Assembly: GCA_963815115.1 (NCBI GenBank)
Contig: CAWFFN010000007.1
Location: 992,001-1,056,000 of the forward strand
DNA: 64,000 bases
Reading direction: 5' to 3'
Source: an uncultured delta proteobacterium
GTDB lineage: Bacteria; Desulfobacterota; Binatia; DP-6
A model generated the notes under the pieces. The model was not told the DNA's origin, searched no databases, and saw only the letters and a program-made list of their open reading frames with translations. The position numbers were made by a program, and so were the translations under genes. Shown here one piece after another: positions 6,442 through 58,606 of the stretch. Within the stretch, counting starts at the first letter, position 1. The number at the start of each line of letters is the position of its first letter.

Positions 6442-9400
6442 TCAGGGGCAGACCAGACCGCTGCGCAGGGCCTTCACGTCCGCGACTCTCGCCTGGAGCA
6501 GCTGGGTGAACTCGGCCGCGATCTGCGGCGAGATCTGCTTCCGGCCGTTGCGGGAGCGAACCTTGGCGACCGTCGCCAGCAACCGGTGCCCGGCCGAGCG
6601 TAGTGCCGCGCGCGCCCGCGGAAGCCGGCCGGCGCCACAGAGCGAAGCCGACCGGTGTACGTCGTCCTGCGCCCGATCGATCCGCTTCCCGATTCCGGAG
6701 GCGAGACCCCCGAGCTGCGACGAGGCCTCTTCGGCCCGCCCATGGAGCGCGTCGATGCGGCAGACCACGCCGTCCATGCTGACCGCGGGGTCACATCCCG
6801 GAGGCAGCGTCGTGCTCGTGGTGCTGGTGGTGGGGACGGTCGTCGACGAGGTCGTGGTCGAGGAGGTGGTCGAGGTCGTGGTCGAGCTCGTCGCGGGATT
6901 CGTGCTGGTCGACGTCGTCGGCGGGACGGTCTCCGTCGTGCTGGTCGTCGTCGAGCTGGTCGGCGGCTCGGTCGAGCTGGTCGTCGATTCCGTCGTGCTC
7001 GTCGTGGTGGTCCCGGCCACGATGGTCGTCGTCGTCGAGGCGGTCGTGGTCGAGGTGCCCGGCTCCGTCGTGCTCGTGGTGGTGGTCGACGTAGTCGTGC
7101 TTGCCGGGATGGTCGTCGTGGGACCGTCCGCGAAGACGGCCGTGTACGTGGTGTCGGCGTCGGGGGTGGTGATCGTGTGGAACTGGACGCCGGCATCCGA
7201 CCAGCTGTCGAACGTCAGCGGGCCCTGCGGAGACGGCGCCCCGACGACCCGCTTGACGCCCACCACGCCCGTGAGCTGCGCGGGCGCCGTCACCGGCTGC
7301 CCGTCGAGGTTGAGCTGCAGGCCCGGCGGGCTGCTGTCGAGGCGGAGCGTCGCGAGACGCGGCTGGATGGACACCGAGGCGACCCCGGTGAGTCCGAAGG
7401 AGTCGGTGGCGCGCAGGACGATCTCGTAGCTGACGTTCGGAGAGGTCTCGCCCGAGTCGTTCGTCTCGAACTGGAGTGACGGCCCGGTCTGCCCGCTCAG
7501 GAAAGGGTGGTAGTGCGTGTCATGGTGGAATCGCACCTCCCACTGGAGAGCCGAATCGGACACGGCGCCGTCGTGGGCGTCGCTCGCGCTTCCGGCAACC
7601 TGGATGGTCTCCCCGCCCGAGAACAACGAGCCGTCGACGGGCTGGCTGATCGTCACGACGGGCGGCGTCCCGACGGTGATGGGCAGTCGTACGCTGTCGG
7701 AACCCTGCGTGTCGCTCACCGTGAGGGTGGCGGTGTAGAGCCCCTGGGCCGGGTAGCCGTGCAAGGGTGCCGCGTCTTCCGACGTCGGGGTGCCGTCGCC
7801 GAAGTCCCACAGGACCTGCAGCGGGTCGTCGTCGGCGGCAAACACCACGTCGACGAAGTAGTTCAACGAACGATAGGAGTCCGAGGGAAAGGTGCTGGTG
7901 CTGCCGTAGCCGAAGACGCCGTTGTTGCCCGATACTCCCGTCGCCAGCGCGTGCAGCGGTGGAGCATCCACTCCCTGATTCGCGAAGTAGTCGAGCTCGC
8001 CGCTGAAGTGTCCGTTCGGGCTGAAGTACGACGCCACGTAGACGGTGTTCGGCACGATCGCCACCGGCGTCGCGAAGCTCACCTCTTGCCAGCCGGAATC
8101 GCTCTCCGCGGTGAAGGTCGCCGTCGCCAGCAGGGTGCCGGCGCTCGACCACAGGTTCCCGACGTGCGTGCCCGTGTTGGCCGGGCCCTTGTAGAAGCGG
8201 ATGCCCGTCACGAATCCCGGCACATCGGACCTGAACTTGACCCCGAGCTCCACCGCGTCGGTGTCGCCGCCGTCCACGATCGCCGGCACCGTGGTCGCGG
8301 GCCAGATCGACTCGAGGCCGCTGATGCTCGGAACGTGGGACGATCCGGAGCTGGAGAACTGCACCGCGAGCGGCGGCGCGCCCTGCGACGGCGTCGCCGT
8401 GGCGCGCGCCACCGGCGGCGTGTTCGACCCGGTCGTCGCGATGCGGTGCACCTCGCCCGCGATGACGTCGGGGTAGTAGAGCGACCCGTCCGGCCCCGCG
8501 ATCAGGTCGGTGTTGCCCTGCAGGTTGGTGGCAAAGGGGATCGCCGGCCCGGAGGCGGTGACGCCGTCGGCGGCGAGGACCACCCGGCGGATGAAGCCCA
8601 CGACGTAGTCCCCGAAGAAGTAGCTCTGCTGGTAGTCTCCCGGGAAGTTCGTTTCGGAGCCGAAGTCGCCGCCGGTGATGGCGGCGCTGCCCTTGGGAAA
8701 ACCGACGTGACTGTACGTGAAGATGGGCTGAGTGAACTGCGGGAAGGTCGCGGAATTGAAGGTACCCTCGGTCGTGGGCCAGCCGTAGTTCTTCTTCTCC
8801 AGGACCCAGTCGACCTCTTCCCAGCTGTTCTCTCCCACGTCGCCGCAGAAGAGCCGGCCGTCGGGATGGAACCTGCAGCGCCAGGGGTTGCGGAAGCCGA
8901 GTGCCCACACCTCGGGTCGCGCGTCGAAGAGACCGACGAACGGGTTGTCGAAAGGCACGGTACCGTCGGAGTTCAGGCGGAGGATCTTGCCGTTGAGCGA
9001 GTCCGGGTCCTGCGCCTTCGTGTGGATCGCTCCGCCGTCTCCGACGGCGACGTAGAGCTTGCCGTCCTGCGGCCCGAAGCCGATCCAGCCGCCGTTGTGG
9101 TTGCCGGCGTCCGAGTCGATGTCGTCGAGGAGCACGACGTGGCTGGTCGGGTCCGCGACGTCCGGATTGCCCTGGTATCCGGCGGTCACGCGAGCGACGC
9201 GGTTCTTGGCGGTCTGGCACTGAGGCGTGCCGGGAACCTTGCACACCGAGTAGTAGAGGTAGACGAAGGAGTTGAGCGCGAAGTCCGGATCGAAGGCAAC
9301 GCCGAGCAGCCCTCGCTCGAGGAAGTCGTCGAAGGTCACCGACGGCTCGACCAGCTGCCTGACGTCGAGGAACGGCGTGCCGAGAAGCACCCCGTCCTTC

Positions 9401-9618
9401 ACGACGCGAAGCTGGCCCGTCTGCTGCGCGATGAACAGCCGCCCGTCGGGAGCGAAGGTGAGACCCACGGGCTGCGAGAGGCCGAAGGCGATGGTGGTGT
9501 CCTGGAACCCCGGCGGCACGTCGGCGAGCGCCCAGGCGCCCGAGAGCAGACATGCTGCGGCGGCGAGGACCGCGACGCGAATCCCCGGAATGCGGTGTTT
9601 GCGAGGTGCGATATTCAT
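6442..9618 (-). CDS. Secreted PQQ-dependent sugar dehydrogenase (GSDH)-PKD-DUF4082-Ig protein with Thr/Ser-rich linker and helical C-terminal domain
   Basis: Signal peptide; ERGLLGVAFDPDF, HNGG, GKILRL, GFRNPWR, GDVGE (GSDH); WDFGDG (PKD); [17 protein letters not shown] (DUF4082); about 100-aa T/S tract. Confidence 0.9.
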   Translation of the reverse strand: MNIAPRKHRIPGIRVAVLAAAACLLSGAWALADVPPGFQDTTIAFGLSQPVGLTFAPDGRLFIAQQTGQLRVVKDGVLLGTPFLDVRQLVEPSVTFDDFLERGLLGVAFDPDFALNSFVYLYYSVCKVPGTPQCQTAKNRVARVTAGYQGNPDVADPTSHVVLLDDIDSDAGNHNGGWIGFGPQDGKLYVAVGDGGAIHTKAQDPDSLNGKILRLNSDGTVPFDNPFVGLFDARPEVWALGFRNPWRCRFHPDGRLFCGDVGENSWEEVDWVLEKKNYGWPTTEGTFNSATFPQFTQPIFTYSHVGFPKGSAAITGGDFGSETNFPGDYQQSYFFGDYVVGFIRRVVLAADGVTASGPAIPFATNLQGNTDLIAGPDGSLYYPDVIAGEVHRIATTGSNTPPVARATATPSQGAPPLAVQFSSSGSSHVPSISGLESIWPATTVPAIVDGGDTDAVELGVKFRSDVPGFVTGIRFYKGPANTGTHVGNLWSSAGTLLATATFTAESDSGWQEVSFATPVAIVPNTVYVASYFSPNGHFSGELDYFANQGVDAPPLHALATGVSGNNGVFGYGSTSTFPSDSYRSLNYFVDVVFAADDDPLQVLWDFGDGTPTSEDAAPLHGYPAQGLYTATLTVSDTQGSDSVRLPITVGTPPVVTISQPVDGSLFSGGETIQVAGSASDAHDGAVSDSALQWEVRFHHDTHYHPFLSGQTGPSLQFETNDSGETSPNVSYEIVLRATDSFGLTGVASVSIQPRLATLRLDSSPPGLQLNLDGQPVTAPAQLTGVVGVKRVVGAPSPQGPLTFDSWSDAGVQFHTITTPDADTTYTAVFADGPTTTIPASTTTSTTTTSTTEPGTSTTTASTTTTIVAGTTTTSTTESTTSSTEPPTSSTTTSTTETVPPTTSTSTNPATSSTTTSTTSSTTTSSTTVPTTSTTSTTLPPGCDPAVSMDGVVCRIDALHGRAEEASSQLGGLASGIGKRIDRAQDDVHRSASLCGAGRLPRARAALRSAGHRLLATVAKVRSRNGRKQISPQIAAEFTQLLQARVADVKALRSGLVCP
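6805..7120 (-). repeat. Low-complexity Thr/Ser/Pro codon repeat (mucin-like linker)
   Basis: Runs of gtcgtg/gtggtc on the + strand encode PASTTTSTTTTSTTEPGTSTTT...TTSTTSTTLPP. Confidence 0.85.
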
Positions 9619-9722: not shown

Positions 9723-10943
9723 CTAGCGCGACGTGTCCGCGGGGACTGCGCTCCGCGAGGCCGCGTGCCGCGCACTGAGCCACAGCAGCCAGCCCAGGAA
9801 TACGAGACAGATGGCGCTCCGCCACTGCCCGAGCAGCGGGATGCCGAGCTGGCAGATCAGCCGGGAGGGGATGAAGAAGAGGCCCAGCAGCACGGCTACC
9901 ACCAGGCCGGCGCCGGGGCGGCCCCGGAGATGGAGCGTCAGGGAGACGGCCAGGGGTGCCAGGTACACGGCGTCGAGGTCGTGCCCGTAGACGATCGTCA
10001 GGGTGATCAGGGGAAGCAGCGCGGGCACGTCGTCCTCGCAGATGCGGTCCCTGAACCACCAGAGGATCGCCGTGAGCATGATCCCGGCGACCGTCAGGTC
10101 CAGCGCCGGCCCTCCGGCCGCGGCGATCAGGCTCGGGAGACCGACGACGAAGCAGGAGCCAAGGAGATTCGGCAGGTGCGTCTTGTAGTCCGCGACCGCG
10201 CCCAGCCACGCCTTCATCTCCGTGATCGGGCCGTGCAGCAGGAGCGGATACGCCATCAGCAGGCCGGCCACGACGCCCGACACCACGATCATCCGCCAGC
10301 GGCGCTCGAGCAGGAACCACAGCAGGGGAAGCATCAGGAGCTGCGGCTTGATGCTCGCGATCGCCAGGCAGACGCCGGCCAGATCCGGCCGGCGCTTGCG
10401 ATCGAGATACCACGCGCCCTGGAGCGCGGTCGCTCCGACCAGCGATATCTGTCCGAGCCACAGCGTCTGGATGGTGAACGTCGAGAACGCGAACAGCGCC
10501 GGGAAGTACCAGATGACGCTTCGAGACGCCGGCAGCAGTCCCGGCGTCACCGGCTCCCACGCCATGCGGGCGGTCAGCCATCCAAGCAACGCGAGCGCCA
10601 GCAGATCGATCACGTGCACCAGACGCATCGCGGTGCTCTCGCTCAGGAGCGCGAGCCCCATGTAGAACGGCGCGGCGACGGGCGGGCTGGCGAAGGCCGG
10701 CAGGTAGGGATCTTCGCGCGGGAAGTGGCGGTCGAGCGACGACCGGTCGTACGGGCTCTCTCCGGCCAGCCAGCTGCGGCCCGCCGCCTGGAACACGGCG
10801 AGGTCCATGGCCCAGACCCCGTGCCGCGCGACACCGAGAATGCCGAAGCCGGTGAGCGCGCTCAGAGCGATCGCCAGCACGAGCGGTCGCGCCCACCGCT
10901 GAAGCGCGGCGCCGCGGGGAATGCGAGCGCCGGAGGACATCAC
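9723..10943 (-). CDS. GT87 (DUF2029) GT-C membrane glycosyltransferase
   Basis: DLAVFQAAG, PAFASPP, LWLGQ and SIKPQ motifs; multi-TM. Confidence 0.85.
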   Translation of the reverse strand: MMSSGARIPRGAALQRWARPLVLAIALSALTGFGILGVARHGVWAMDLAVFQAAGRSWLAGESPYDRSSLDRHFPREDPYLPAFASPPVAAPFYMGLALLSESTAMRLVHVIDLLALALLGWLTARMAWEPVTPGLLPASRSVIWYFPALFAFSTFTIQTLWLGQISLVGATALQGAWYLDRKRRPDLAGVCLAIASIKPQLLMLPLLWFLLERRWRMIVVSGVVAGLLMAYPLLLHGPITEMKAWLGAVADYKTHLPNLLGSCFVVGLPSLIAAAGGPALDLTVAGIMLTAILWWFRDRICEDDVPALLPLITLTIVYGHDLDAVYLAPLAVSLTLHLRGRPGAGLVVAVLLGLFFIPSRLICQLGIPLLGQWRSAICLVFLGWLLWLSARHAASRSAVPADTSR

Positions 10944-11134: not shown

Positions 11135-11905
11135 ATGTCGCCATCGATCGATCCACCCCGCCTCTCGCACGCGACGTGGCAACACCCGGCGTTCGCGCTC
11201 ACCGCCGATCAGGACTGGGCGCCCGCCTGGGCTTCCGAGCAGCTCCTCGCAGCCGCCGCGGCGCTCGGAATGCCGCTGCACGTGTTCCGGACCAACCCCT
11301 GCCCCGTGCTCGACGAGGCCGCCGCACGAGGTCGAATCACCCAGGGATGGCATCCGAACTTCCTGCCGGGCTCGGACCACGGCGACACGCCCGAGCAGGT
11401 GATCGCCTATTGCCGCGCGCATTTTCCCGGCTGCCGCACCGCCAGGGCGCACTGCTTCATGGAGCACACCATGGCCTGGGACGCGCTCGCCGCGGCGGGG
11501 GTCATCGCCGATTCCCAGCTTCCGACCTACTTCCAGGAAGGGCTCGTCCCGCTCATGCATGCGTCGGGCATCTGGCGGCTTCCGGTCTACTTCGAGGACG
11601 ACATCTTCTTCCGCTCGTTCCCGCTCGATCTGCCTCTGGACCGCATCCAGGCGACCCTCTTCGGGCCCGGGCTGAAGGTGCTCAACTTCCATCCCACGTT
11701 CGTCGCCGCGAACGTGCCCTCGCCGGCCTACTACGCCGAGATCAAGACCCGCTGGTTCTCGCCCGCCGGCGACCACCGGAAGCTGGTCCATCCCGGCCGG
11801 GGCACCAGGGCGGTGCTCGAGGAGCTGGCGGCACTGGTCACGTCGAAGGGGTTCGCCTTCGAATCCTTCGAGGCCCTGGTCGACCGCCTCCCCGCAGTCG
11901 GCTGA
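11135..11905 (+). CDS. WbmS-like polysaccharide deacetylase (NodB-type)
   Basis: LTADQDWAP, GWHPNF, P.YFEDD and LKVLNFHP motifs; ATG11135 chosen as start. Confidence 0.75.
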   Translation: MSPSIDPPRLSHATWQHPAFALTADQDWAPAWASEQLLAAAAALGMPLHVFRTNPCPVLDEAAARGRITQGWHPNFLPGSDHGDTPEQVIAYCRAHFPGCRTARAHCFMEHTMAWDALAAAGVIADSQLPTYFQEGLVPLMHASGIWRLPVYFEDDIFFRSFPLDLPLDRIQATLFGPGLKVLNFHPTFVAANVPSPAYYAEIKTRWFSPAGDHRKLVHPGRGTRAVLEELAALVTSKGFAFESFEALVDRLPAVG

Positions 11906-11924
11906 TCGCGCACGATCCCGGGGA

Positions 11925-12932
11925 TCAGGCCCTGATCGCGAGGACGTGAGTGGTCTCGGGAAAGTGCACCAGCGTGTCGGCACGCGTCGCGAAGAACTCG
12001 TCCACCGCCTTCTTCACGCCGGAGAAGGGAACCTTCGCGCCCCGCGGCAGCTCGGGTTCCTCGGCGCAGTAGTCGTGAAACAGCATCATGCCGCCGGGCT
12101 CGAGCTTGGGGTGGAAGAACCGGCAGCATTCCATCGCCGGCTCGTACAGATCCGCGTCGTAGTAGACGAAGGCGAAGCGCTCGTCCCGCACGGCCGCCAG
12201 CGTGTCCGCGAAGAATCCCGGATGAATCCGGACGTTCGGGAAGGGCGCGAGGTAGCTTCGCACCTTGGGGAGAGTCGTGTCGGCGAACTCGCTGCGTCGC
12301 TGCGAGGGGTCGTGCGCCGACAGATCCGGAAACCCCGCGAAGCTGTCGAAGAGGCGAAGCGTCCGCCGACCGAGGATGTCACCGCCCGCGAGCAGGCTGC
12401 AGAAGGCATTGCCGCCCTGGAACACGCCGAGCTCCGCGACGTCGCCCGCGAGGTTGGCCCGATCGAGGTGCTTGAGCAGCTCCAGGTAGAGCCAGGTCCC
12501 GGCAAAGCCGCTCAGGTTCTGCGGATGGGTGTAGATTGAGAGCACGCGCGCCGTCGCGAACAGCTCGGGCGACGCCTCGATCCCCAGCGAGGCCTTCAGG
12601 CGGTGGCGATAGCTCTCGAAGTGCAGGACGGAGCAGTCGATCCAGCCGTCGGGGAAGCTCAGGCCGAATGCTGCGAGGCGGTCCCCGATCGCCCGGATGG
12701 CCGCCCCCGTATAGGCGAAGATGATCACGCGATACTCGGCGAGATTCACCCGATCGAGCTCCGCGGGCGACACGATGGGGATGCCGAACAGCGTCGTGCC
12801 CTGGGATTCCGGGCTGTCGTCGACGATGAACTCGAGGTCGAGCGGGGTCTCGCGTAACGTGAGCAGGGTGGCAAGACCCGCTCCGTAGCCGATCAGCTTG
12901 CTGCGCTTGAGCGCGTCGAGATCGATGTCCAT
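11925..12932 (-). CDS. TylF/MycF/NovP-family O-methyltransferase with N-terminal Rossmann-like domain
   Basis: GDVAELGVFQG, LFDSFAGF, GFFADT, YDADLYEP and FHDY motifs; N-terminal IGYGAG..FIVDD. Confidence 0.85.
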   Translation of the reverse strand: MDIDLDALKRSKLIGYGAGLATLLTLRETPLDLEFIVDDSPESQGTTLFGIPIVSPAELDRVNLAEYRVIIFAYTGAAIRAIGDRLAAFGLSFPDGWIDCSVLHFESYRHRLKASLGIEASPELFATARVLSIYTHPQNLSGFAGTWLYLELLKHLDRANLAGDVAELGVFQGGNAFCSLLAGGDILGRRTLRLFDSFAGFPDLSAHDPSQRRSEFADTTLPKVRSYLAPFPNVRIHPGFFADTLAAVRDERFAFVYYDADLYEPAMECCRFFHPKLEPGGMMLFHDYCAEEPELPRGAKVPFSGVKKAVDEFFATRADTLVHFPETTHVLAIRA

Positions 12933-12934
12933 GC

Positions 12935-13684
12935 CTACTTGATGAACTCTTCCGGAGGCACCTTCTTGACCACGCGCGCCGGATTCCCGAGGACGAGCGT
13001 CGCCTCGGGCACGTCCTGGAACACCACCGCGCCGAGCGCGACCACGGCCTCGCGTCCCACCGTGATGCCCGGATGCAGGGAAGCACCCGTCCCGACCCTC
13101 GCCCCCGCCCGGATCACCGGCCCCCGGCTCTCGCAGGGAATCGCCCGGCGGTGGCTGATCACCGTGCCCGATGCGGTACAGACCCGGGCTCCGATGAAGA
13201 CGTCGTCCTCGACGACCGTGTTCTCCGAGAGATACGAGGCGGTGAAGATGAGGCACCGGCTCCCGATCGTGACGTGGAACTCCAGGTTGACCCCGCGCCC
13301 CACCACGCTCTTCGCACCGATGGTGCAGTTCTCGCGGACCGAGGCCAGGTCGCCGAGGAAGGCCTCCTTTCCGATCCGGCATCCCGCGTACACGATCGCG
13401 CCGGTACCGATCAGCGCGCCGTCCTCGATCGTCGTCTGATTCCCGGTCGCCTGGGCTCCGAGGGTCGCGACCGCCGAGCTGTGCGGCCGCTTCCCGATCA
13501 CGGCGTGGTCCTGGACGGTCACGCCGCTGCCGATCGCGGTGCCGGGAAAGATCACGACGTGGCTCCCGATGCGCGTCCCGGCACCGATCCGGACGGCATC
13601 GTGGATGACCGCGAAGTGCGCGAACGACACGGACTCGTCGATCGTCGCCTCGGGCGAGATGACGTTGCCGTCAGACGGGGGCAC
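12935..13684 (-). CDS. Hexapeptide-repeat (LbH) N-acyltransferase
   Basis: Extensive [IV]GxxxxI repeats; ends VLGNPARVVK. Confidence 0.85.
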   Translation of the reverse strand: MPPSDGNVISPEATIDESVSFAHFAVIHDAVRIGAGTRIGSHVVIFPGTAIGSGVTVQDHAVIGKRPHSSAVATLGAQATGNQTTIEDGALIGTGAIVYAGCRIGKEAFLGDLASVRENCTIGAKSVVGRGVNLEFHVTIGSRCLIFTASYLSENTVVEDDVFIGARVCTASGTVISHRRAIPCESRGPVIRAGARVGTGASLHPGITVGREAVVALGAVVFQDVPEATLVLGNPARVVKKVPPEEFIK

Positions 13685-13707
13685 CTCGCCGCCTTCCTTC
13701 CGGGAAC

Positions 13708-13953
13708 TCAGCTCGACCCGCCGGGGTCCCGTCCCTGCCGCAGCAGCTCCGCGCGCAGCGCGGCGACGGCGGTGAGGGACGGAATGTCATCGGACGAGAA
13801 GTGCACGTCGAACGCCTCCTCCACGGCCAGGATCAGCGCAAAGTGACGGAGCGAATCCCACTCCGGGGTGTTCTCCATCGAGGTGCTCTCCTGCACCAGC
13901 TCGGGAGAGACCTGGAGGGCCTCCGCCACCGTCGCGACCAGCTTGTCGCTCAC
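13708..13953 (-). CDS. Acyl carrier protein (81 aa)
   Basis: WDSLRH phosphopantetheine Ser motif and VEEAFDV; GTG overlaps the FkbH stop. Confidence 0.9.
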   Translation of the reverse strand: MSDKLVATVAEALQVSPELVQESTSMENTPEWDSLRHFALILAVEEAFDVHFSSDDIPSLTAVAALRAELLRQGRDPGGSS

Positions 13954-15671
13954 TGATCGCCTCGCCAGCTCACACTGAAGAGGTCCTGGCGCGGGCCATC
14001 GACCGCCCCCGCGAGCTCGAACCGCCGGCTGCCGTCCCGCTGCTCCTCCAGGAGGCGGAAGCCCGCCCGCTCGAGAAACCCGCCGGCCACCGCGTTGCGT
14101 GGTCCCGGCACGAAGGTGGCCCGGATGGCCTCGCGGGAACCCCGCCGGACGCGATCGACGCAGGCGGCGAGGAACGCGTCCTCGAAGCTCCGGCCGATGA
14201 CCCGGCAGCTCATCATGAAGCTGTCGAGCTCCCAGCGAGCATTGGCCTGCTGGTGCTCGAGGATCGCGAGTGCGATCCAGCCGTGGTCGGTGAATCGATC
14301 CTTGAGCGAAGCGGCGATCACCATCCAGCTCGGATCGTTCAGGACGCGGGCCATCTCCGCCTCGGTATACCGCTTGAGGGTGAGATTGAACTGGTTCGTC
14401 TTCTGGGTGAGCTGCGCGCTCCGCGCCAGCAGCGAGGCGTCGTTCACGCTGAAGACGGCCTCCATGCGCAGGGATCGCAGGAACTCCTCGGGGCTGCCGC
14501 ACTCCTGCAACGCGGCGGCCGTCTGCGCCCGGGCGCGGTACTGCTCGGTCTTGGCGCGGTCCTCGCTGGTGACGTTCGCCTTGTAGAACCATCGCCACGC
14601 CAGCTCCTCGCCGAAGGCCGGGAGACCGGCGGGATCGGACGGGAATTCCGGGACCGTGACCTCGGGAAGCGCGGATCGCACCTGCTCTCGCTCGACGGGA
14701 TTGTCGTCCACGAACACGAAGCTGTCCAAGCCCACCCCGAGGGTGGCGGCGAGCCGGCCGAGCCCCTCCGACTTCGACCCCCAGCCCACGTGGCGGGCAG
14801 CGATACGATCCGGCCGCAGCACCATCTCGGGGCGGGTCGCAAAGACCTCGTCGACGTCCTCCGGGTTGTTGCGCGAGCACAGGGCCACGAGCACGCCCCG
14901 GCTCTCGAGCGCTGCGACGGTGCGCTGGAACTCCGTGTAGGCGCGTCCGATGCCGTCTCCGCCGAGACGGATGCCGCCCACACCATCCTCACCGACGATC
15001 CCGCCCCAGAGCGTGTTGTCGCAGTCGAGCGCCAGCACCTTCTTCGTTCGCCCCAGGACCGCGTTCCAGTGGGACGCGAGCCGCTCGGCGAGGGCCTTCA
15101 TGCCTCGAGCCGAGAGCGGCATGCGGGCCAGGAAGTCCATCCGGGCGTCGTAGGTGACGCCCGCGCCCAGCGCGTGGGTCACGCGCTCGCGCTCGAAGAG
15201 CGACCAGCCCGCTGCTTCCCGGCACCGGCGCCGCACCTGGGCGTTGAACACCCCGGTCGCGACCGCCACGGGATCCAGCTCGGAATCGTTCAGGCCGGCG
15301 ACGGCACCCGGGAACTCCACCTCGGCGGTGGACAGGATCCAGCTCACCTCCGGATGCCGCGCGGACAGCGAGGAGATGGCCCCGAGAAGGAATTCCGCCG
15401 CCTGGGTGCCAGCCTCCTCGGGAGCGATCTCGGGACGGGGTCCCGTGAGCTGCCGCTCGAAGAGGTCGCGCGCCTCCGGAAAGACGACGGCCGCGCGGGG
15501 CGGGTCGCTCTCGAAGTCCTCGTCTGCTCCCGACCACAGCCGGAGCTCGCGATCGAACCCGCAGACCACGATCTCGGGCTTCAATCCGTAGCTCTGGAGC
15601 GCTTTCCGGAAGACCGGGGCGAACAGCTCCCACGAGGCGCGGCCGACGACGAAGATGCGCCCATCGCTCAT
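13950..15671 (-). CDS. FkbH-like HAD-IIIC glyceryl-ACP synthase
   Basis: LDCDNTLWGGIVGEDG, CSRNN, FVFVDDNPVERE, KTNQFNLT and MSCRV; ATGA overlap with the VOC gene. Confidence 0.92.
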   Translation of the reverse strand: MSDGRIFVVGRASWELFAPVFRKALQSYGLKPEIVVCGFDRELRLWSGADEDFESDPPRAAVVFPEARDLFERQLTGPRPEIAPEEAGTQAAEFLLGAISSLSARHPEVSWILSTAEVEFPGAVAGLNDSELDPVAVATGVFNAQVRRRCREAAGWSLFERERVTHALGAGVTYDARMDFLARMPLSARGMKALAERLASHWNAVLGRTKKVLALDCDNTLWGGIVGEDGVGGIRLGGDGIGRAYTEFQRTVAALESRGVLVALCSRNNPEDVDEVFATRPEMVLRPDRIAARHVGWGSKSEGLGRLAATLGVGLDSFVFVDDNPVEREQVRSALPEVTVPEFPSDPAGLPAFGEELAWRWFYKANVTSEDRAKTEQYRARAQTAAALQECGSPEEFLRSLRMEAVFSVNDASLLARSAQLTQKTNQFNLTLKRYTEAEMARVLNDPSWMVIAASLKDRFTDHGWIALAILEHQQANARWELDSFMMSCRVIGRSFEDAFLAACVDRVRRGSREAIRATFVPGPRNAVAGGFLERAGFRLLEEQRDGSRRFELAGAVDGPRQDLFSVSWRGDQ

Positions 15672-16072
15672 CTCTCGACCCATTCGATGAGTCCCAGCGC
15701 GTGGTAGAGGACGAAGGCCATGCGTCTGCCCTCGAAGGCCTGCGAGGGCACCGGCGGGCGCACGACGATGCCGCCACTCGATCGCGCCCCCTTGATCATC
15801 TCGTCGAAGTTGTCACACCGGAAGCACAGGTGATCGGGGTGTCCGCTGTCTGCTCCGGCGGTCTTGATGCGAGAGCCGGCACAGGGTTCCACGAGCTCGA
15901 TGCGGCCGCCCTGGAAGGTCAGGAAGGCGACCCGGACCTGATCCGCGCTCACCAGCGTTGCGGGCAGCTCCACTCGCGCACCCAGCATCTCCCACCTCCG
16001 GGTCGACGCTGCCATGTCCGTCACCAGGTAGGCTGTGTGATGGAGCTCCGGGTTCTCGGGAGCAGGTACCAT
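15668..16072 (-). CDS. VOC-family (glyoxalase/methylmalonyl-CoA epimerase-like) protein
   Basis: LHHTAYLV, IELVEP, DHLCF and LIEWVE give the H/E/H/E metal ligands. Confidence 0.85.
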   Translation of the reverse strand: MVPAPENPELHHTAYLVTDMAASTRRWEMLGARVELPATLVSADQVRVAFLTFQGGRIELVEPCAGSRIKTAGADSGHPDHLCFRCDNFDEMIKGARSSGGIVVRPPVPSQAFEGRRMAFVLYHALGLIEWVER

Positions 16073-16150
16073 TCTCGACCGAAATTATCGCTCGGGAGGG
16101 GGCATGTGTCGAGCGACCGACACGACGGGACGGTGAGCGCGCCAGTGCAC

Positions 16151-16224: not shown

Positions 16225-19200
16225 TCAGGGCGTCGTGAAGATCACGTCCACCCAGTAGTTCAACGTCCGATACGTGGTCGTCGGGAAGACGCTGGTTGCT
16301 CCGTACGAGAACACGCCGTTCCCGCCCGAGACGCCGTCCGCCAGGGCATGGAGAGGCGCATTGTCCACGCCCTGCCCTGCGAAGAAGTCGAGGTTTCCGC
16401 TGTAGTGCCCGTTCGGTGCGAAATACGACGCCACGTAGGTCGTGTTCGCGGCGATCGCCACGGGGGTGGCGAAGTTCATCTGCTGCCACCCCGAAGCGGA
16501 CTCGCCCGTGAAGTTCACCGTCCCGAGGCGCGTCCCGGCGGCCGACCAGATGCTCCCGACGTGGGTCCCCGTGTTCCCGGGGCTCTTGTAGAAGCGAATT
16601 CCCGTGATGTGCCCGGCGACGTCGGAGCGGAACTTGACGCCCAGCTCCACCGCGGCGGTGTCGCCGCCATCCACGATGGCCGGGACCGGGTTGCCCGGCC
16701 AGATCATCGTGGTCGCCGCGTTGATGGTGATGCCGAGCGCCTTGGTGGTGTTCTGCGCACCCGCGGTCACCCGGACGGTGAAGTTCGACGTGCCGGTCGC
16801 GGTCGGGGTGCCCGAGATCACGCCCGAATTCGCGTTGAGCGTCAGTCCCGCCGGCAGCGTCCCGGTGGCGAGCGCCCACGAGTACGGGGGCGTCCCGCCG
16901 CTGGCCGCCAGCGTCGCCGTGTAGGCGCCTCCCACGGTGCCCGCGGGAAGCGACGTCGTGGTGATGGTCAACGGACCGGCCGCGACCGTGAGCCCGGTGC
17001 TCCCGGTGACCGAACCGAGCGTTGCCGAGATCGTCGTCGTCCCGGTCGACACCGCGGTGGCCAGCCCGCCGGTCGTCACCGTGGCCACCGCCGTGGCCGA
17101 CGACGCGAAGGTCACCTGATTGGTCACGTCGAGCGTGCTCGAGTCCGAGTACGTCGCCGTGGCGGTGAACTGCTGCGTCCCGCCCGTCGTGATCGTCGGG
17201 TTGGCGGGTGTCACCGCGATCGACGTCAGCGTCGGTGGCGGCTGCGGGCTGAACACGACGTCCACCCAGTAGTTCAACGACCGGAAGCTGTTCACCGGGA
17301 AGGTGCTGGTCGCCCCGTACGCGAACACGCCGTTGGGGCCCGACACGCCGGTCATCAGCGCGTGTAACGGGGGAGTATCCACGCCCTGCGTCGCGAAGTA
17401 GTCGAGATTGCCGCTCTCATGAGCGTTGGGAGCGAAGTACGAGGCGACGTAGACCGTGTTCGCCTGGATCGCCACCGGCGTGGAGAAGTTCACCTGCTGC
17501 CAGCCGGTGGGCGTCTCGCCGGTGAAGGTCGCCGTCGCGAGCCGGGTTCCGTTGATCGACCACAGGCTGCCGATGTGGGTGCCCGTGTTCGCGGCGCTCT
17601 TGTAGAAGCGGATCCCGAGGATGGAGCCCGCCGTCTCGGAGCGGAACTTGACGCCCAGCTCCACGGAGGAAGTGTCGCCGCCGTCCACGATCGCCGGCGT
17701 CGGATTGCTCGGCCAGATCGTCACGGTCGGCATGCTGACCGTGATGCTCAGGGGACGCGTGACGGTGTCCTCGCCCGCGCTCACCTCGGCGGTGAAGTTG
17801 AAGGTGCCGACCGCGGTCGGGGTTCCCGAGATCACGCCACTGCTCGCGGTGAGTGTGAGGCCGTCCGGCAGGGCTCCCGCCGCGATCGACCACGTGTAGG
17901 GCGGCATCCCGCCGAGTGCCGACAGGTCCGTGTTGTAGGCCGTGTTCAGGGTCGCCGGGGGCAGCGAGGCCGTGGTGATGGTGAGCGGCCCCGACTGCAC
18001 GGTCAGTCCGGTGCTTCCGTTGACCGAGCCGAGGGTTGCGGTGATGGTCGTCCCACCCGCACCGCCGGCCGTGGCGACGCCCGCTGCGTTGATGGTCGCC
18101 GCCGCCGTGTTCGAGGAGGTCCAGGTCACCTGGTTGGTCAGGTCCTGCGTGGTCACGTCCGAGTACAGCCCGGTGGCCGTGTATTGCTGCGTTCCGCCCA
18201 CCGTCACCGTGGCGTTGCTCGGCGACACCTGGATCGTGGTGAGCGTGGGCGACACGACATTGACGGTGCGCTGCGCCGGGGTGCCGAGGTTGGCGCTGTC
18301 ATCCACCGCGCGCGCGCGAAGGGACGTGGAGCCCACCACGGTGGGCAGCCAGGCATAGGTCCAGGACGTGCGTCCGACCGCGGGATGCCAGGTCACCCCT
18401 CCGTCCGTCGACACCTCGACGCCGCCCACCTGTCCGCCGGTGTCGCTCGCCGTTCCGCTGATGGTCAACGGCTTGCCGTTCGAAACTGTCGCCCCGGCCG
18501 CCGGCGACGTGATGGTCGCCGTGGGCGCGGTGGTGTCGGCCGAGGCCGTGGCCGCGACGAGTCCGGACTGTAGCGAGGTAGGCTGCACGCCCATGTCGGC
18601 GAACAGGTTGACCGTCGCCTGCTGCATGTTCGCGTCGGTCGCGGGTCCGGCGTAGTCGTGCTGCGCGTCCAGGCCCCAGGGCCACTGGATGGTGCCGGCG
18701 CCGAAGACGAGCGAACCGGAGGAGTTCTTGTAAAGGGTGAGATGGTGAGTCGCCGTGCCCGACGCGTATGTCGTGCCGTAGTCCTGCAGGTACTGCACGC
18801 CGGACACGGTCGTGCTCGACATGCGGACGATACCTGCCGGTCGAACGCCGTTGTCGATATCCTCGTCCCACTCGGTACCGAGGACGCCCGTCGGGAGCGT
18901 CGCGGTCTGGCCCGCGGCCAGCGAGGCGATGCTGGTATTGCGCCAGAAGCGCATCTTGCCGTCGGCGGCGGGAACCAGCATCGCGTCGTTGCGGATCCCG
19001 TTGACCGTGAAGAGCGACCCGTTGAGCGCGTTCTCGGGACGGCCGCCGTCGGCCGGCGGGCTGAAGCGCGGGTCGCGCCACGAGCCCGTCCACACGTTCG
19101 GCATGGGATCGATCTTGGCGTTGGCGTGCGTCTCCTTGTAGCAGACCAGCGTGCGGTACGGCGTGTTCGAGCCGTCGATGCTGTTCTCCCAGCGCGTCTT

Positions 19201-22200
19201 CCAGAAGCCGTGGTTGCCGCTGAAGATCGCGATGTGGACGCCGGCGGCGCGCGCCGCCTCGACGTTGGTCCGCTCGCCGCCCGACCAGTACTCGTCGTGG
19301 CCCACGGGCATGTACACGCGGTGCTCCAGCAGCTCGGACCCGCGTCGATCGGTGTCCATCCCGGTCGTGTAGCTGACGTCGTAGCCGTTGCGCTCGAGCC
19401 ACCGGACCATCGGGTACTCGGTGTTGAACAGCCAGCTCTCGGTCGAACCGTTGGGGAACTCGCAGCAGCGCGTGGTGAACGGGCGGTTGTAGCTCACCTT
19501 GTAGGCGCGGCCGACCGGCGAGCCGAAGTAGAGGCTGTTGCCGCCGTAGGTGTTGTAGGCCTGCCAGGTGGTGTCCGAGGTCTGGAACAGCAGGTCGGAG
19601 TGGCCGGCATCGTCACGCACGATGAAGGGGATGTGGCTGGCGCGGCCGTCCTCGGGATCCTGGCGCACCAGCTTGGCGACGTAGATGCCTGAGGTCGCGG
19701 TCGCCGGCACGCTCCACGACGCCGACACCGCCCAGTTGCCGCAGTCGACCAGGCCGGTGGTCACGTCGGAGAGACACGCAGGCTGGCTCTGCGGCAGCGT
19801 CGCCGACGGCTGCACGGTCGCCACCAGACGCGCGCCGAGGCCGCCGTAGTAGCCGAGACGGTAGATGTCGATGCGATAGGTGCTCGAGCCGGTCTGGACC
19901 TTGAAGTCGACCGCCTCCCCCTTGTTCACGCTGATGTCGGTCGCGAAGCCCTGGATGTCGGGGTCACCCGCGCCGCTCACGTCCCACTGGCTGGCCGGGT
20001 TGCCCGGGAGCAGGTTCTCCGCTGCGATCTCGTTCTGCCCGATCGAGACGACCAGGCTCTGGGTCGCCGTCTGCGCTCCCGAGGTCACGCGCACGGTCAC
20101 CGTCGACAGCCCGTTCGCCGTGGGCGTCCCCGAGATCACCCCGGTGCCCGGGGCCAGCGTCAGGCCGGCGGGCAGGGTCCCGCTCGCGATCGACCAGGTA
20201 TACGGCGAGCTCCCGCCGATCGCCGCCAGCGTCGCGCTGTAGGCGGTGTTCTTCACGCCGACCGGGAGCTGCGTCGTCGTGATCGTCACGCCCCCCGGCG
20301 GCTGGACCGTGAGGGTCGTGGTCCCGTTCAGCTCGCCCAGTGCGCCGGTGATGGTCGTCGTCCCCTGGCTCACGGCCGTCGCGCGGCCCGTGCCGTTGAT
20401 CGTCGCGATCGCGGGGCTCGCGGAGGTCCACGTCACCTGCGTGGTCAGGTCCTGGGTGCTCTGGTCGGAGTACGTGCCGGTGGCCGTGAACTGCTGCGTC
20501 CCGCCGATGCCCACCGCCGGATCGGCCGGCGTCACCGCGATCGACGTCAGCTGCGCGGTCGCCTGCGCGCTGAACACCACGTCGACCCAGTAGTTCAGGG
20601 AGCGATAGGTGCTGTTGGGGAAGACGCTGGCGGCGCCGTAGGCGTACACGCCGTTGCCGCCCGATGCCGCGTCCGCCAGGGCGTGCAGCGGCGGGTTGTC
20701 GAGCTGTTCCACGAAGTAGTCGAAGTTGCCGCTGTAGTGACCGTTGGGGGCGAAGTACGACGCGACGTAGGTGGTGTTCGCAGCGATCGCCACCGGCGTG
20801 GCGAAGTTCACCTGCTGCCATCCCGAGGCCGTCTCGGCGGTGAAGGTCACCGTGGCGAGGCGCGTGCCGGTGCTCGACCACAGGTTGCCGATATGGGCGC
20901 CCGTGTTGCCCGCGCTCTTGTAGAAGCGCAGGCCCGAGACGAAGCCGGGCACCTCGGAACGGAACTTGACGCCCAGCTCGACCGGGAGCGTATCGCCGCC
21001 GTCCACGATGTCCGGCGTCGGGGTGTTCGTCCACAGCGTGTAGCCGCCGGCCGGCGCCTCGCAGGCGTCCGTGGTCGCGTTGCAGGTCTGGCCCACCGGG
21101 CACGACGACGTGCTGACGCACACGCCGTTGGTGCAGAGATCCGCCGTGCAGGCGATGCCGTCGGTGCACGGCGCCGTATTGTTCTGGAAGACGCAGCCGG
21201 TGACGGCGTCACAGGAGTCGTCCGTGCAGGGGTTGCCGTCGTTGCAGACAGGCGGGGTGCCCGAAATGCAGGTGCCCGCCTGGCACGTCTCGACGCCGTT
21301 GCAGGCGTTGCCGTCGGTGCAGCTCGTACCGTTCGGCGCCTTCACGTCCGTCGGGCAGGCGCCGCTGGAGCCGGTGCAGGCCTCCGCGATGTCGCAGGGG
21401 CTCGCCGGTCCCCGGCACACCGTGCCGGCGGCGACGAACGTGTCGGTCGGGCAGGCCGGGCTGGAGCCGGTGCAGCTCTCGGCCTGATCGCACACGCCCG
21501 ACGCCGGGCGGCACAGCGCGCCGGCCACGGCGAGGACGTCGGCCGGGCAGGTGGCGCTGGAGCCGGTGCAGGTCTCGGCGACGTCGCAGAGGCCGGCGGC
21601 CGGCCGGCAGACTGCCCCTGCTCCCGCGAACTGGCAGCCGCCGGTGCAGCAGGCGCCGCCGTCACAGGCTTCGCCCGGATCGATCTGGCCGTTGCCGCAC
21701 TGGCCGGTCGCGCTCACGATCACCGTCGCGCTCTGCGAGGCGGTACCGTTGCGCTGATCGGTCACGGTGAGGGTCGCCGTGTAGGTTCCCGCGCTGGCAT
21801 AGGTGTGCGCCGGATCGGCCTGCGTCGAGTTGCCACCGTCCCCGAAGTCCCAGCCGTAGGTGAGCGTGGTGAACTCGGGGTCGGACGACCCCGAGCCCGT
21901 GAACTGCACGGCCAGCGGCGCGACGCCGCCCAGCGGATTGGCCGACACCACCGCGACCGGTGGCTGGTTCACGTACTGCGCGGTGTAGGTGGCCGGGGCC
22001 GTCCCGACCAGGAAGTCGTGCGAGGTCCCGGTCACCCCGTCGGCCCACTTGAAGAACGTGAGCCCGCCCTGGATCGGCTCGACCGAGACCGTGTCCTCGG
22101 ATCCCACCACGGGGTGGGCGAGCAGCGGCGACGCCTGCGTGAGGCCTTCGTTCTCGTAGTTGACCAGGAGGCCGATGGGATCGGTGGTGAGCGTGATGAG

Positions 22201-24270: not shown

Positions 24271-24487
24271 CACGGCAGGATTCCTTTCATTCATCAACGA
24301 CTGACTTGCGCACCCCGAAAGAAGCCCCTGGCAGGCCGTGCAGACTCCCGGTGTCCGATTGGCATAAGGGACGGACCGAACTCCGCTTCCGGGTCGCCCT
24401 GTCCTTGGCTCATCGGAGGCCCGTTCCCTCCCCGGGACAGTCCTGACGAGAGTCGATGCTCGATCGAGCCCCGCATTCACGCAGTGC

Positions 24488-24504
24488 AGCAAGGCGTGTG
24501 CCGG
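24488..24504 (-). promoter_or_regulatory. Sigma54 (-24/-12) promoter candidate for the giant gene
   Basis: Minus strand CCGGCACACGCCTTGCT has GG-N10-GC spacing with GGCAC and TTGC, about 220 nt upstream of ATG24270 in a divergent intergenic region. Confidence 0.6.
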
Positions 24505-24853
24505 CAAAAGCCTTATTGAATGGCGGCGTTGCCAGTGCATACGCGCATGATTGATCCGCAGCACCGCGTTTCCGCCAGGGATGGGCCCCGCCACCGTCAC
24601 GGCAGGGTTGGCAGCGGACACCGCCACTGCCATAGACAGCCCCTCACCGGGGACGGTATGAGGGCCCCGCTCCGCGGCTCGCATGCCGGGGAGCACGTGG
24701 CGCAATCACCCTCACCCGAGTGCTCGAACCCTCGATTTCCTCGCTCGGTCCCAGCCAGCCGAGCGACCGCGCGGCCCGGCGAATCGCCCCGGCAGCGATG
24801 GCCGCCGACCAGGCGGGGCCGGGGCGGGCCCCGGTCGCGGGGGGCACCTGACG

Positions 24854-39587: not shown

Positions 39588-39596
39588 GGGCCGCGT

Positions 39597-42337: not shown

Positions 42338-42386
42338 CGTCTCCTCAGTCGCCCCCGGGGCACGAGAGCATGCGTGGCGCGGACAT

Positions 42387-55355: not shown

Positions 55356-55356
55356 G

Positions 55357-58567: not shown

Positions 58568-58576
58568 GGGGAAGCT
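58541..58576. repeat. 12-bp tandem repeat x3 (CATGGGGAARCT) spanning the aminotransferase start
   Basis: Units at 58541-58552, 58553-58564 and 58565-58576; encodes MSFP-MSFP-M. Confidence 0.85.
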
Positions 58577-58606
58577 CGGGGTCGCTGATCGAGGTCGAGG
58601 GATCGG

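Follow-up and report, generated by a model that had tools for sequence, protein, structure and literature searches.

A putative acyl carrier protein-dependent cassette for glycerate decoration of an amino sugar in a surface-glycan locus of an uncultured high-GC bacterium

Glyceryl-acyl carrier protein (glyceryl-ACP) is formed by FkbH/FkbJ, OzmB/OzmE and ZmaN/ZmaD in the methoxymalonyl-/hydroxymalonyl-ACP and tetronate pathways. The flagellin locus of C. jejuni includes ACP, methyltransferase, N-acetyltransferase and FabH-like genes. It also has an fkbH-domain gene, cj1302, and cj1301 (annotated epimerase), and the flagellin carries di-O-methylglyceroyl pseudaminic acid; in the accessible portions of the two reports, cj1295 is the only gene experimentally tied to the modification (PMC7099621, PMC3068675). 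As far as the accessible parts of three further accounts go, both T. forsythia and V. vulnificus carry N-glyceroyl Pse, the responsible genes being given as unidentified (PMC5378307); an FkbH-loaded, then methylated glycerate has been proposed for suomilide (PMC8609519); and the Porphyromonas gingivalis/Tannerella forsythia Wbp/Vim system is proposed to remove an N-acetyl group (VimE) and then re-acylate (VimA) a Wbp-type diamino sugar (PMC7468200). We found no bench test of a carrier-protein glyceryl route to a glycan in print.

The window analyzed here, a 64,000-nucleotide stretch of DNA from an uncultured high-GC bacterium, contains a five-gene operon embedded in a large surface-sugar locus (Table 1). 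Start/stop junctions and profile matches indicate that the VOC, FkbH, ACP, LbH and TylF-type methyltransferase genes form a single translationally coupled unit. With the ATG at 15671 as its start, FkbH equals its nearest homologues in length (573 aa) and shares an ATGA with the VOC stop codon, while the alternative first ATG at 15683 gives a 16-nt overlap. The ACP gene starts at a GTG that shares GTGA with the stop codon of FkbH, the LbH start lies 23 nt downstream of the ACP stop, and the methyltransferase ATG lies 2 nt past the LbH stop. The stop codons of the operon and the converging deacetylase gene are separated by 19 nt. The gene calls are supported by a third-position GC of 0.8–0.9 in the called frames. 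All six genes reported by the first-pass annotation are real and located where it placed them, apart from small corrections, the implied methyltransferase start having been slightly off. The promoter is predicted from a consensus match only, with two sigma-70-like sites observed in the region against 0.2 expected. The GT87 gene, divergent from the deacetylase gene, is taken as context rather than as a member of the cassette.

Table 1. Position and profile support of the cassette genes and adjoining features in the window
Feature	Position	Strand	Remarks
Sigma-70-like promoter match (TCGACA, 17 nt, GATAAT)	16084..16112	-	directly upstream of VOC start; 10/12 consensus matches
VOC (glyoxalase-fold) metalloenzyme, 134 aa, operon gene 1	15668..16072	-	Glyoxalase_4
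FkbH-like glyceryl-ACP synthase (HAD-IIIC), 573 aa	13950..15671	-	TIGR01686
Dedicated acyl carrier protein (ACP), 81 aa	13708..13953	-	weak PP-binding; W-D-S serine
LbH (left-handed beta-helix) acyltransferase, 249 aa, QdtC/WlbB-like	12935..13684	-	Hexapep
Two-domain O-methyltransferase, 335 aa, TylF-type	11925..12932	-	TylF
WbmS-like deacetylase, 256 aa, converging on operon	11135..11905	+	PF22537
GT87-family GT-C glycosyltransferase, context gene	9723..10943	-	PF09594 3.8e-20

The surroundings are those of an amino-sugar and glycosyltransferase locus, a glycan rather than a polyketide setting, as had been supposed. A Pfam scan of 34 window ORFs found three DegT aminotransferases, two 3-dehydrogenase-like GFO/IDH/MocA proteins, WecB, GT2, GT4, two GT87 and two PMT_2 proteins, a Wzx-like flippase and an AT3-SGNH protein. 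The same scan returned no PKS/NRPS domain (KS, AT, A, C, acyl-ACP dehydrogenase), in line with the initial remark that KS, A and C domains are missing. The window also lacks an MBOAT, as noted before: a profile built from related loci matched nothing in it, and all four MBOAT matches of the genome are on other contigs. Profile searches of the window found no FabH-like gene, no member of an unassigned ~375-aa family and no second ACP.

FkbH scored 276 bits against TIGR01686 (cut-off 146.65; 3.4e-82), has an N-terminal domain of ~210 aa and matched BF1531 (3slr) at 1e-42. The HAD Asp and SCR Cys on which its proposed function depended are in place: D220, D222, S492, C493 and R494 (577-aa-start numbering) were invariant in all 20 aligned homologues. 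The ACP fell below the PP-binding cut-off (17.5 bits vs. 20.8) and matched ACP NCBIfam models weakly; W32, D33 and S34 were invariant in 29/29 aligned cassette ACPs and kept in a 112-sequence alignment, which upholds its role as carrier. The genome has two phosphopantetheinyl transferase matches. VOC matched Glyoxalase_4 at 48 bits (cut-off 27; 1.8e-12), missed the equivalog cut-off for methylmalonyl-CoA epimerase (28.9 vs. 114.95 bits), and had clostridial glyoxalase I entries 3hdp and 2qh0 (~2e-8) as its nearest solved structures. Its putative H-E-H-E metal ligands (H12, E59, H81, E130) were retained in ≥85% of 67 cassette VOCs, and the suggested action on a thioester is chemically sensible.

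LbH (Hexapep 3.8e-25) best matched QdtC (3fs8, 8e-18) and WlbB (3mqg, 3e-16), over nearly its full length, and a Foldseek search with its model (pLDDT 93.6) placed QdtC at the top (TM 0.61–0.64), followed by LpxA. Both QdtC and WlbB are acetyl-CoA-dependent LbH N-acetyltransferases acting on nucleotide-linked 3-amino sugars, and such a sugar could be provided in the window by a 3-dehydrogenase-like enzyme together with aminotransferases. Unlike them, the window LbH has its gene 23 nt downstream of that for an ACP and belongs, by sequence, to a QdtC/WlbB-near subclade with an altered active-site loop, in which TASG replaces the T(S/T/A)ND of most homologues; QdtC aligns there with TND. LpxA and LpxD, which share the fold, take acyl groups from ACP onto UDP-sugars, and LbH enzymes are thus capable of using ACP donors. 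Membership in the LpxA/LpxD families themselves was rejected, as the scores (77–89 bits) fell far under the 207–243 equivalog cut-offs; identity was 18–22%.

We compared the cassette with 170 FkbH loci from other genomes, counting neighbors within 4 kb; because related genomes are non-independent and many loci lie on short contigs, the numbers should be read as minima rather than as statistics. An ACP gene was found in 154/170 loci, VOC in 71, LbH in 41, a FabH-like gene in 35, the ~375-aa protein in 27 and MBOAT in 14. The earlier statement that VOC-FkbH-ACP is usually paired with an MBOAT was therefore wrong, VOC being present in one of those 14 MBOAT loci. LbH, MBOAT and the ~375-aa family never occurred together, as expected of alternative acyl-ACP users. 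LbH abutted a core gene (FkbH, ACP or VOC; <250 nt) in ~38/170 loci, frequently right beside ACP, which, together with its exclusion from MBOAT loci, fits an LbH enzyme consuming acyl-ACP and makes this role plausible. The LbH subtype of the window was in none of the 170 loci; FkbH-adjacent LbH proteins of other phyla are of several unrelated types, chiefly PglD/NeuD-like 'GHD' enzymes. In the closest genome-resolved relative (53% FkbH identity), VOC, FkbH, ACP, LbH and methyltransferase follow one another just as in the window, and the closest LbH homologues (53–80% identical) lie on contigs of the same sizes as FkbH homologues (16224, 8774, 13283, 19334, 39898, 12352). FkbH loci repeatedly contain NeuB, DegT, PseB-like and initiating-transferase genes, and full-length FkbH relatives (~573 aa) occupy polysaccharide loci in many phyla. 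The proposed route, with glycerate built up on an ACP and passed to a sugar, is common in genomes.

The methyltransferase (TylF 1.5e-17; model pLDDT 94.6) combines an N-terminal Rossmann-like domain (~residues 1–100) with a TylF-type catalytic domain. Full-length relatives are scarce (49 representatives at E ≤ 1e-30), and a homologous gene lay near FkbH in only four of the 170 loci. Its Foldseek neighbors, SpnH, NovP, MycF and CalS11, all methylate sugars and not acyl groups, and we found no evidence for the order of acyl transfer followed by O-methylation put forward in the first-pass annotation, nor for its lactyl/glycolyl outcome, the cassette being without a reductase. The deacetylase matched PF22537 at 101.6 bits (cut-off 27; 6.7e-29) and WbmS (3hft) at 6e-11; such genes exceeded the family cut-off in only 3/201 genomes of the phylum, its own included. 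Its link to the cassette is weak, as is support for the suggested acyl swap: a WbmS-like gene occurred near FkbH in 0/170 loci. In the one other WbmS-like locus inspected, its neighbors include LbH, dehydratase and DegT genes but neither FkbH nor ACP. Linkage to the cassette is found mainly in close relatives, as judged only from coinciding contig sizes.

These data lean towards a cassette that builds a glycerate-derived acyl group on its dedicated ACP and attaches it to a surface-glycan amino sugar, the individual steps being modeled on homologous enzymes. FkbH would very probably use its HAD Asp and SCR Cys to move glyceryl from 1,3-bisphosphoglycerate onto holo-ACP. VOC might then act on the glyceryl thioester, most simply by C2 epimerization through alpha-proton abstraction, in analogy to methylmalonyl-CoA epimerase and glyoxalase I, a step that we propose tentatively. 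It seems somewhat favored that LbH would take the acyl from ACP and N-acylate a nucleotide-linked amino sugar; the likeliest acceptor is a 3-amino sugar, for example UDP-GlcNAc3N, which the 3-dehydrogenase-like and DegT enzymes of the window would supply. The TylF-type enzyme would O-methylate either the glyceroyl hydroxyl(s) or a sugar hydroxyl, with about even chances for the two; the attached glycerate group is probably methylated. It is doubtful that the deacetylase would expose an amine so that acetyl is exchanged for glyceroyl, along the lines suggested for VimE/VimA, and it may equally act in another step of the locus. The many glycosyltransferases of the window would incorporate the modified sugar into the glycan. 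What survives of the initial interpretation is the FkbH and ACP residues, the glycan setting, the LbH adjacency and the VOC chemistry; the MBOAT pairing was not borne out, and the deacetylase swap, the lactyl/glycolyl outcome and the methylation order remain conjectural.

The genes could also be co-transcribed only because all serve one glycan, with FkbH, ACP and VOC feeding some other acyl-ACP user, possibly outside the operon, LbH being an acetyl-CoA N-acetyltransferase (WbpD/QdtC paralogue) and TylF a plain sugar O-methyltransferase. The acetyl-CoA dependence of QdtC and WlbB agrees with this, as do the automatic names in the 90% cluster of LbH ('UDP-2-acetamido-3-amino-2,3-dideoxy-glucuronate N-acetyltransferase', WbpD-type) and the sugar-methylating neighbors of the methyltransferase; moreover, none of four candidate transferases lay within 4 kb of FkbH in 71/170 loci, so that the acyl-ACP user need not adjoin FkbH. 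However, the window offers no other candidate user (MBOAT, FabH-like or ~375-aa family), and three further LbH genes (four in all by LbH profile) are already available for ordinary N-acetylation. The LbH/MBOAT exclusivity, the recurrent LbH-ACP adjacency, the loop motif lost in the LbH subclade and the coupled start/stop codons also speak against such an arrangement, which we consider unlikely.

A different acceptor is less probable still. An ester on a sugar hydroxyl, or a lipid or protein acceptor, would suit a family with many O-acyltransferases (LpxA, maltose/galactoside O-acetyltransferases and WcaF all match), and the MBOAT-type FkbH cassettes presumably O-acylate; but the best full-length LbH matches are N-acyltransferases, the window is rich in aminotransferases, and the glycerate decorations described in the accessible portions of two reports are amides (PMC5378307, PMC3068675). 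Least credible, and very improbable, is a small-molecule pathway (methoxymalonyl-ACP extender, tetronate or similar) lying in the glycan locus incidentally. The FkbH enzymes for which we found published biochemistry all come from natural-product pathways, with which 36 of the 37 papers listed, out of 40 since 2016 that mention FkbH, are concerned; the absence of the corresponding domains from the 34 scanned ORFs and of a FabH-like gene from the window, its glycosyltransferase and sugar-nucleotide flanks, and the polysaccharide loci of the ~573-aa relatives point the other way.

Among known systems, Dlt-type MBOAT modules similarly use a carrier-protein-borne acyl for a surface polymer, and FkbH-ACP-MBOAT loci exist, but the window has no MBOAT and VOC is nearly absent from that type. 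As in the Wbp/Vim system, Wbp-like enzymes are present and a deacetylase adjoins an acyltransferase; VimE, however, belongs to CE4, and VimA is FemAB-like and adds serine or glycine, according to the accessible description, whereas the window has a WbmS-like deacetylase, an LbH transferase and an ACP-borne acyl. With FkbH/FkbJ-type systems the locus shares an FkbH above the TIGR01686 cut-off, invariant D-x-D and S-C-R motifs and an adjoining stand-alone ACP. It differs in its glycan setting, in lacking FkbK/FkbI-type dehydrogenases, KS and a FabH-like partner, and in adding VOC, the LbH transferase and the TylF-type methyltransferase. The C. jejuni locus is resembled more closely by FkbH loci with NeuB, FabH and PglD/NeuD-type LbH than by the window, whose cassette lacks FabH and NeuB and whose LbH is QdtC-like, and the sugar acylated in C. 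jejuni is a nonulosonic acid; the likeness, drawn from published descriptions as far as accessible, lies in the fkbH-domain gene, the epimerase-annotated cj1301 and the O-methylated glycerate amide documented there on an amino sugar.

We called genes by third-position GC and profile matches because the window has a G+C content of about 70%. The resulting cassette consists of genes for a VOC (glyoxalase-fold) protein, an FkbH-like protein, an acyl carrier protein (ACP), a left-handed beta-helix (LbH) acyltransferase and a TylF-type methyltransferase, with a WbmS-like deacetylase gene converging on them. The VOC and FkbH genes meet in an ATGA overlap when the second FkbH ATG is taken as the start, which gives a protein of 573 aa, the length of the closest homologues. 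FkbH and ACP meet in a GTGA overlap, the ACP-LbH and LbH-methyltransferase gaps measure 23 nt and 2 nt, and the convergent stop codons of the methyltransferase and deacetylase genes lie 19 nt apart. A sigma-70-like match, a resemblance to the consensus only, was found 12 nt upstream of the VOC start. The genes, order and strands described in the first-pass annotation were retained, with the methyltransferase start corrected and the second ATG taken as the likely FkbH start.

Positions of the cassette genes and of other features of the window
Feature	Position	Strand	Basis or remarks
VOC/glyoxalase-fold gene	15668-16072	-	profiles and third-position GC
FkbH-like gene	13950-15671	-	profiles and third-position GC
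ACP gene	13708-13953	-	profiles and third-position GC
LbH acyltransferase gene	12935-13684	-	profiles and third-position GC
TylF-type methyltransferase gene	11925-12932	-	profiles and third-position GC
WbmS-like deacetylase gene	11135-11905	+	profiles
Second FkbH paralogue	1859-4009	-	716 aa
Giant secreted protein	6442-9618	-	1058 aa
Giant secreted protein	16225-24705	-	2826 aa
Amino-sugar gene set	24683-35866		
Amino-sugar gene set	50233-58606		
AT3-SGNH fusion	37302-39596	-	Acyl_transf_3, GDSL_2
Strongly positive AT skew	36001-44000		0.21-0.30
Strongly positive AT skew	50001-52000		0.21-0.30

The cassette FkbH matched TIGR01686 at 276.2 bits (cut-off 146.65) over residues 213-544, and D220 and D222 of its HAD D-x-D-x-T motif, together with S492, C493 and R494, were invariant in 20 of 20 aligned homologues of 31-77% identity. 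In FkbH-type enzymes the cysteine of the S-C-R motif is the carrier of the glyceryl group. By sequence, the protein is assigned to the FkbH-type glyceryl-ACP synthase family (HAD-IIIC) and is predicted to use 1,3-bisphosphoglycerate and to load D-glyceryl onto its partner ACP. The ACP itself scored 17.5 bits against Pfam PP-binding, just under the cut-off of 20.8, and stayed below the cut-offs of all NCBIfam ACP models; the serine of its W-D-S motif, the predicted site of phosphopantetheine attachment, did not vary among the cassette ACPs aligned (29 of 29), and the genome contains two phosphopantetheinyl transferase matches. The VOC protein matched Glyoxalase_4 (48 bits, cut-off 27) and reached 28.9 bits with the methylmalonyl-CoA epimerase equivalog TIGR03081, far below the 114.95 set for that model, so its profile matches place it in the VOC superfamily only and not with the methylmalonyl-CoA epimerase equivalog. 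Its H12, E59, H81 and E130, retained in at least 85% of 67 cassette VOCs, are presumably metal ligands on paired beta-alpha-beta-beta-beta modules, judging by their position and by the general fold of VOC enzymes.

A second FkbH paralogue lies 10 kb from the cassette, followed by an MFS transporter gene and with no adjoining ACP gene. Its FkbH domain (207 bits, over the cut-off) is 33% identical to that of the cassette enzyme, with both the D-x-D-N-T and the S-C-R motif intact; the protein may rely on the ACP of the cassette. The N-terminal ~375 aa gave no family match, nothing in the protein atlas and no relative in the 170 surveyed loci described below. In two other genomes of the phylum (G143, locus L085, and G196, locus L091), the FkbH match falls within open frames of 1771 and 2164 aa, presumably fused forms serving as PKS- or NRPS-type loading modules, unlike the stand-alone FkbH of the cassette.

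At least 6518 FkbH relatives of cassette length were found at E <= 1e-10 among 8000 scored candidates. We surveyed 170 FkbH loci, comprising 80 from species genomes, 80 from metagenomes and 10 from the window's phylum, as six-frame ORFs with the window proteins and with profiles built from their matches. The counts are lower bounds rather than statistics, since many of these loci are on short contigs and related genomes do not provide independent observations; the best loci carried an FkbH 49-53% identical to that of the cassette, the relatives of 70-89% identity from the protein search not being among them. Within 4 kb of FkbH, we found an ACP in 154 loci, VOC in 71, a FabG-like SDR in 48, LbH in 41, a FabH-like protein in 35, a ~375-aa family without a Pfam match in 27 and an MBOAT membrane acyltransferase in 14. 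LbH, MBOAT and the ~375-aa family were mutually exclusive, and VOC accompanied LbH in 23 of 41 loci, FabH in 22 of 35, the ~375-aa family in 15 of 27 and MBOAT in only 1 of 14. The expectation that VOC-FkbH-ACP cassettes are usually paired with an MBOAT was therefore not borne out. Not counting the overlapping-frame artefacts L062 and L082, an LbH gene was separated from a core gene by less than 250 nt in 38 loci, and it was often the direct neighbour of an ACP gene. Of the 170 loci, 14 contained an initiating sugar transferase, 11 a CE4 deacetylase cluster and 7 NeuB. The window's order recurs in the closest genome-resolved relative, L003 (labelled Solibacteraceae; FkbH 53% identical), where VOC, FkbH and ACP are followed by a short LbH and then a Methyltransf_23 enzyme. 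From these counts, the core FkbH module is widespread and modular, with at least three transferase variants, LbH among them, that exclude one another.

The ~375-aa family directly follows the ACP gene in 24-27 of the 170 loci (e.g., L033:10098-11234 and L147:5588-6709) and is a candidate third class of acyl-ACP-using transferase. A sulfotransferase was present within 4 kb of FkbH in 25 of the 170 loci, never together with LbH (e.g., L033:11282-12154 and L096:5698-6546). Aeruginosin-type peptides carry sulfated O-methylglycerate, and this analogy suggests that the sulfotransferase-bearing loci may make sulfated glycerate decorations.

The solved proteins nearest in sequence to the cassette LbH were QdtC (3fs8, 8.2e-18, residues 23-240), WlbB (3mqg, 3e-16) and an FdtD-like protein, and a Foldseek search with the predicted model (pLDDT 93.6) ranked QdtC first (TM 0.61-0.64), followed by LpxA and WlbB. 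On these sequence and fold matches, we assign the protein as a predicted full-length LbH of the type that N-acylates nucleotide-linked 3-amino sugars, which fits the 3-dehydrogenase-like and aminotransferase genes of the window. LpxA/LpxD equivalog profiles gave 77-89 bits, below their cut-offs of 207-243, and the NeuD/PglB/VioB profile TIGR03570 gave 98.5 bits against 160.8, over the C-terminal half only. The GHD motif is missing from the cassette LbH, whereas the FkbH-adjacent LbHs of other phyla belong to other types, mostly PglD/NeuD-like with a GHD motif; distinct LbH lineages have evidently been recruited to FkbH loci. In an alignment of 37 homologues, the window LbH and the 12 closest relatives listed (52-93% identical) carry T(S)-A-S(A)-G...RR, and the more distant majority carry T-(S/T/A)-N-D, as does QdtC in a pairwise alignment; we take the N-D loop motif of QdtC-type LbHs to have a role in sugar binding. 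Six close LbH relatives lie on contigs whose sizes (16224, 8774, 13283, 19334, 39898 and 12352) coincide with those of contigs from the FkbH protein search, which suggests that this LbH subclade travels with FkbH. The cassette LbH may use acyl-ACP; a predicted complex of the LbH trimer with the ACP scored 0.01 against a mark of 0.32, a value that counts neither for nor against binding.

The methyltransferase matched TylF (PF05711) at 64.2 bits against a cut-off of 23. Its model (pLDDT 94.6) comprises an N-terminal Rossmann-like domain (approximately residues 1-100), for which the protein atlas gave a weak C2185-like_N match (score 0.83, below the 0.9 mark), and a catalytic domain whose top Foldseek matches, SpnH, NovP, MycF and CalS11, are all metal-dependent sugar O-methyltransferases. 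The acidic residues D196, D259, D261 and D287 were invariant in 39 aligned relatives. Few proteins are related to it over the full length (49 representatives at E <= 1e-30), and a homologue occurred within 4 kb of FkbH in 4 of the 170 loci. The enzyme may methylate either the glyceroyl group, at its vicinal diol, or a hydroxyl of a sugar; in one surveyed locus (L162) a weakly similar methyltransferase gene lies between VOC and FkbH, a placement that hints at the acyl unit as substrate.

The deacetylase is clearly WbmS-like in sequence (PF22537, 101.6 bits against 27; WbmS 3hft, 6.3e-11), with a predicted polysaccharide deacetylase activity. Our literature search on WbmS returned only unrelated acronyms and no demonstrated activity for the family. 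The family is rare, exceeding the cut-off in 3 of 201 genomes of the phylum, the window's own genome included. In the one other genome opened (G023), the WbmS-like gene has LbH, dehydratase and DegT genes nearby but neither FkbH nor ACP. Deacetylase homologues lie on contigs with the sizes of those of FkbH homologues in close relatives (16224, 13283, 16238 and 9602) and in one distant pair (7381); for the contigs of 19334, 39898 and 12352, with LbH relatives 53-62% identical, no deacetylase match appeared among the best 120 of 198. None of the 170 FkbH loci has a WbmS-like gene anywhere in the locus, and the shared contig sizes are mostly seen in close relatives. A deacetylate-then-reacylate step in the cassette is a weakly supported possibility.

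The window is a surface-glycan locus. Pfam searches of 34 of its ORFs, some also searched with NCBIfam, identified three DegT aminotransferases, two GFO/IDH/MocA enzymes (best NCBIfam match UDP-GlcNAc 3-dehydrogenase, under its cut-off), a WecB 2-epimerase over its cut-off, a 4,6-dehydratase-like SDR, four LbH genes in total, a GT2, a GT4, two GT87 and two PMT_2 GT-C enzymes, a Wzx-like flippase and an AT3-SGNH acyltransferase. The last, a fusion of the type that O-acetylates surface glycans, is a second, independent acylation system. The two amino-sugar gene sets contain 3-dehydrogenase-like GFO/IDH/MocA, DegT and LbH genes, accompanied by the WecB epimerase, ArnC/PgfS-like GT2, PMT_2, GT87 GT-C and a small membrane protein of TMEM234-like type; the combination is reminiscent of an Arn-like route for amino sugars on polyprenyl phosphate, alongside a Wzx-dependent one. 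The operon is flanked by giant secreted proteins, whose domains include DUF4082, GSDH, PKD, He_PIG, Big_2, disintegrin-like and DMFA2_C. The shorter has a long Ser/Thr-rich stretch, and its gene comes after a co-oriented gene for a GT87 GT-C glycosyltransferase; both proteins are possible O-glycosylation targets of the locus. The AT skew in the two regions tabulated is well above that of most other parts of the window.

Taken together, the operon is real, and it most likely serves, by way of glyceryl-ACP, to decorate an amino sugar with an N-acyl group that derives from glycerate and is probably O-methylated. Two other fates of an FkbH-loaded unit were weighed. A methoxymalonyl (FkbG/H/I/J/K) or tetronate pathway was rejected for its missing dehydrogenases, KS and FabH: Pfam detected no 3-hydroxyacyl-ACP or acyl-ACP dehydrogenase domain in the cassette or the 34 ORFs, nor any PKS or NRPS domain among these ORFs. 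A Dlt-like module, in which an MBOAT would act, was likewise rejected, as the MBOAT profile matches nothing in the window and its four genomic matches lie on other contigs. Within the preferred glycan-decoration reading, we consider a more detailed scheme rather unlikely as a whole: the subclade LbH, its active-site loop rebuilt to TASG...RR from TxNDN...GR, would take an epimerised, O-methylated glyceryl unit from the dedicated ACP rather than an acetyl group from CoA. With the WbmS-like enzyme it would replace the N-acetyl group of a UDP-diamino sugar by O-methylglyceroyl, and the modified sugar would decorate O-glycans of the flanking Ser/Thr-rich DUF4082 proteins. If true, it would supply the missing enzymology for N-glyceroyl and di-O-methylglyceroyl sugars.

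What is new here is the QdtC-like LbH subclade, the two-domain TylF enzyme and the WbmS-like neighbour, the underlying module being widespread. If FkbH-ACP cassettes are the source of such acyl groups, a function could be assigned to thousands of genes named "HAD-IIIC phosphatase" that lie in the polysaccharide loci of many phyla, and carrier-protein chemistry would extend from polyketides to glycan tailoring. The window cassette is a compact five-gene version, without FabH or reductase, and would be simple to reconstitute. The literature searched, which covered few subscription journals, yielded no bench test of an FkbH-ACP glycan module and no biochemical study of cj1298-cj1302 or of FkbH in polysaccharide; among 37 of the 40 papers on FkbH since 2016, the only glycan-related one just mentions the gene (PMC7099621), and a search for methoxypropion in the Bordetella literature found nothing.

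Several known systems can be compared with the cassette. Sugars of flagellin, S-layers and LPS are known to bear N-glyceroyl and di-O-methylglyceroyl amides. N-glyceroyl Pse is present in T. forsythia and V. vulnificus, and a 2017 paper describes the genes as "yet to be identified" and the mechanism as unidentified (PMC5378307). The flagellin of C. jejuni 11168 carries di-O-methylglyceroyl pseudaminic acid in dependence on cj1295 (PMC3068675), and in the flagellin locus cj1302 encodes an FkbH domain and cj1301 carries an epimerase annotation (PMC7099621). The route proposed for suomilide has an FkbH domain loading glycerate, which is then methylated and sulfonated (PMC8609519). In the Wbp/Vim acyl swap, a deacetylate-then-reacylate logic has been proposed for VimE and VimA (PMC7468200). 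VimE is a CE4 enzyme and VimA is FemAB-like, whereas the window has a WbmS-like deacetylase and no FemAB-like domain in the 34 ORFs, so that the two systems share their logic only.
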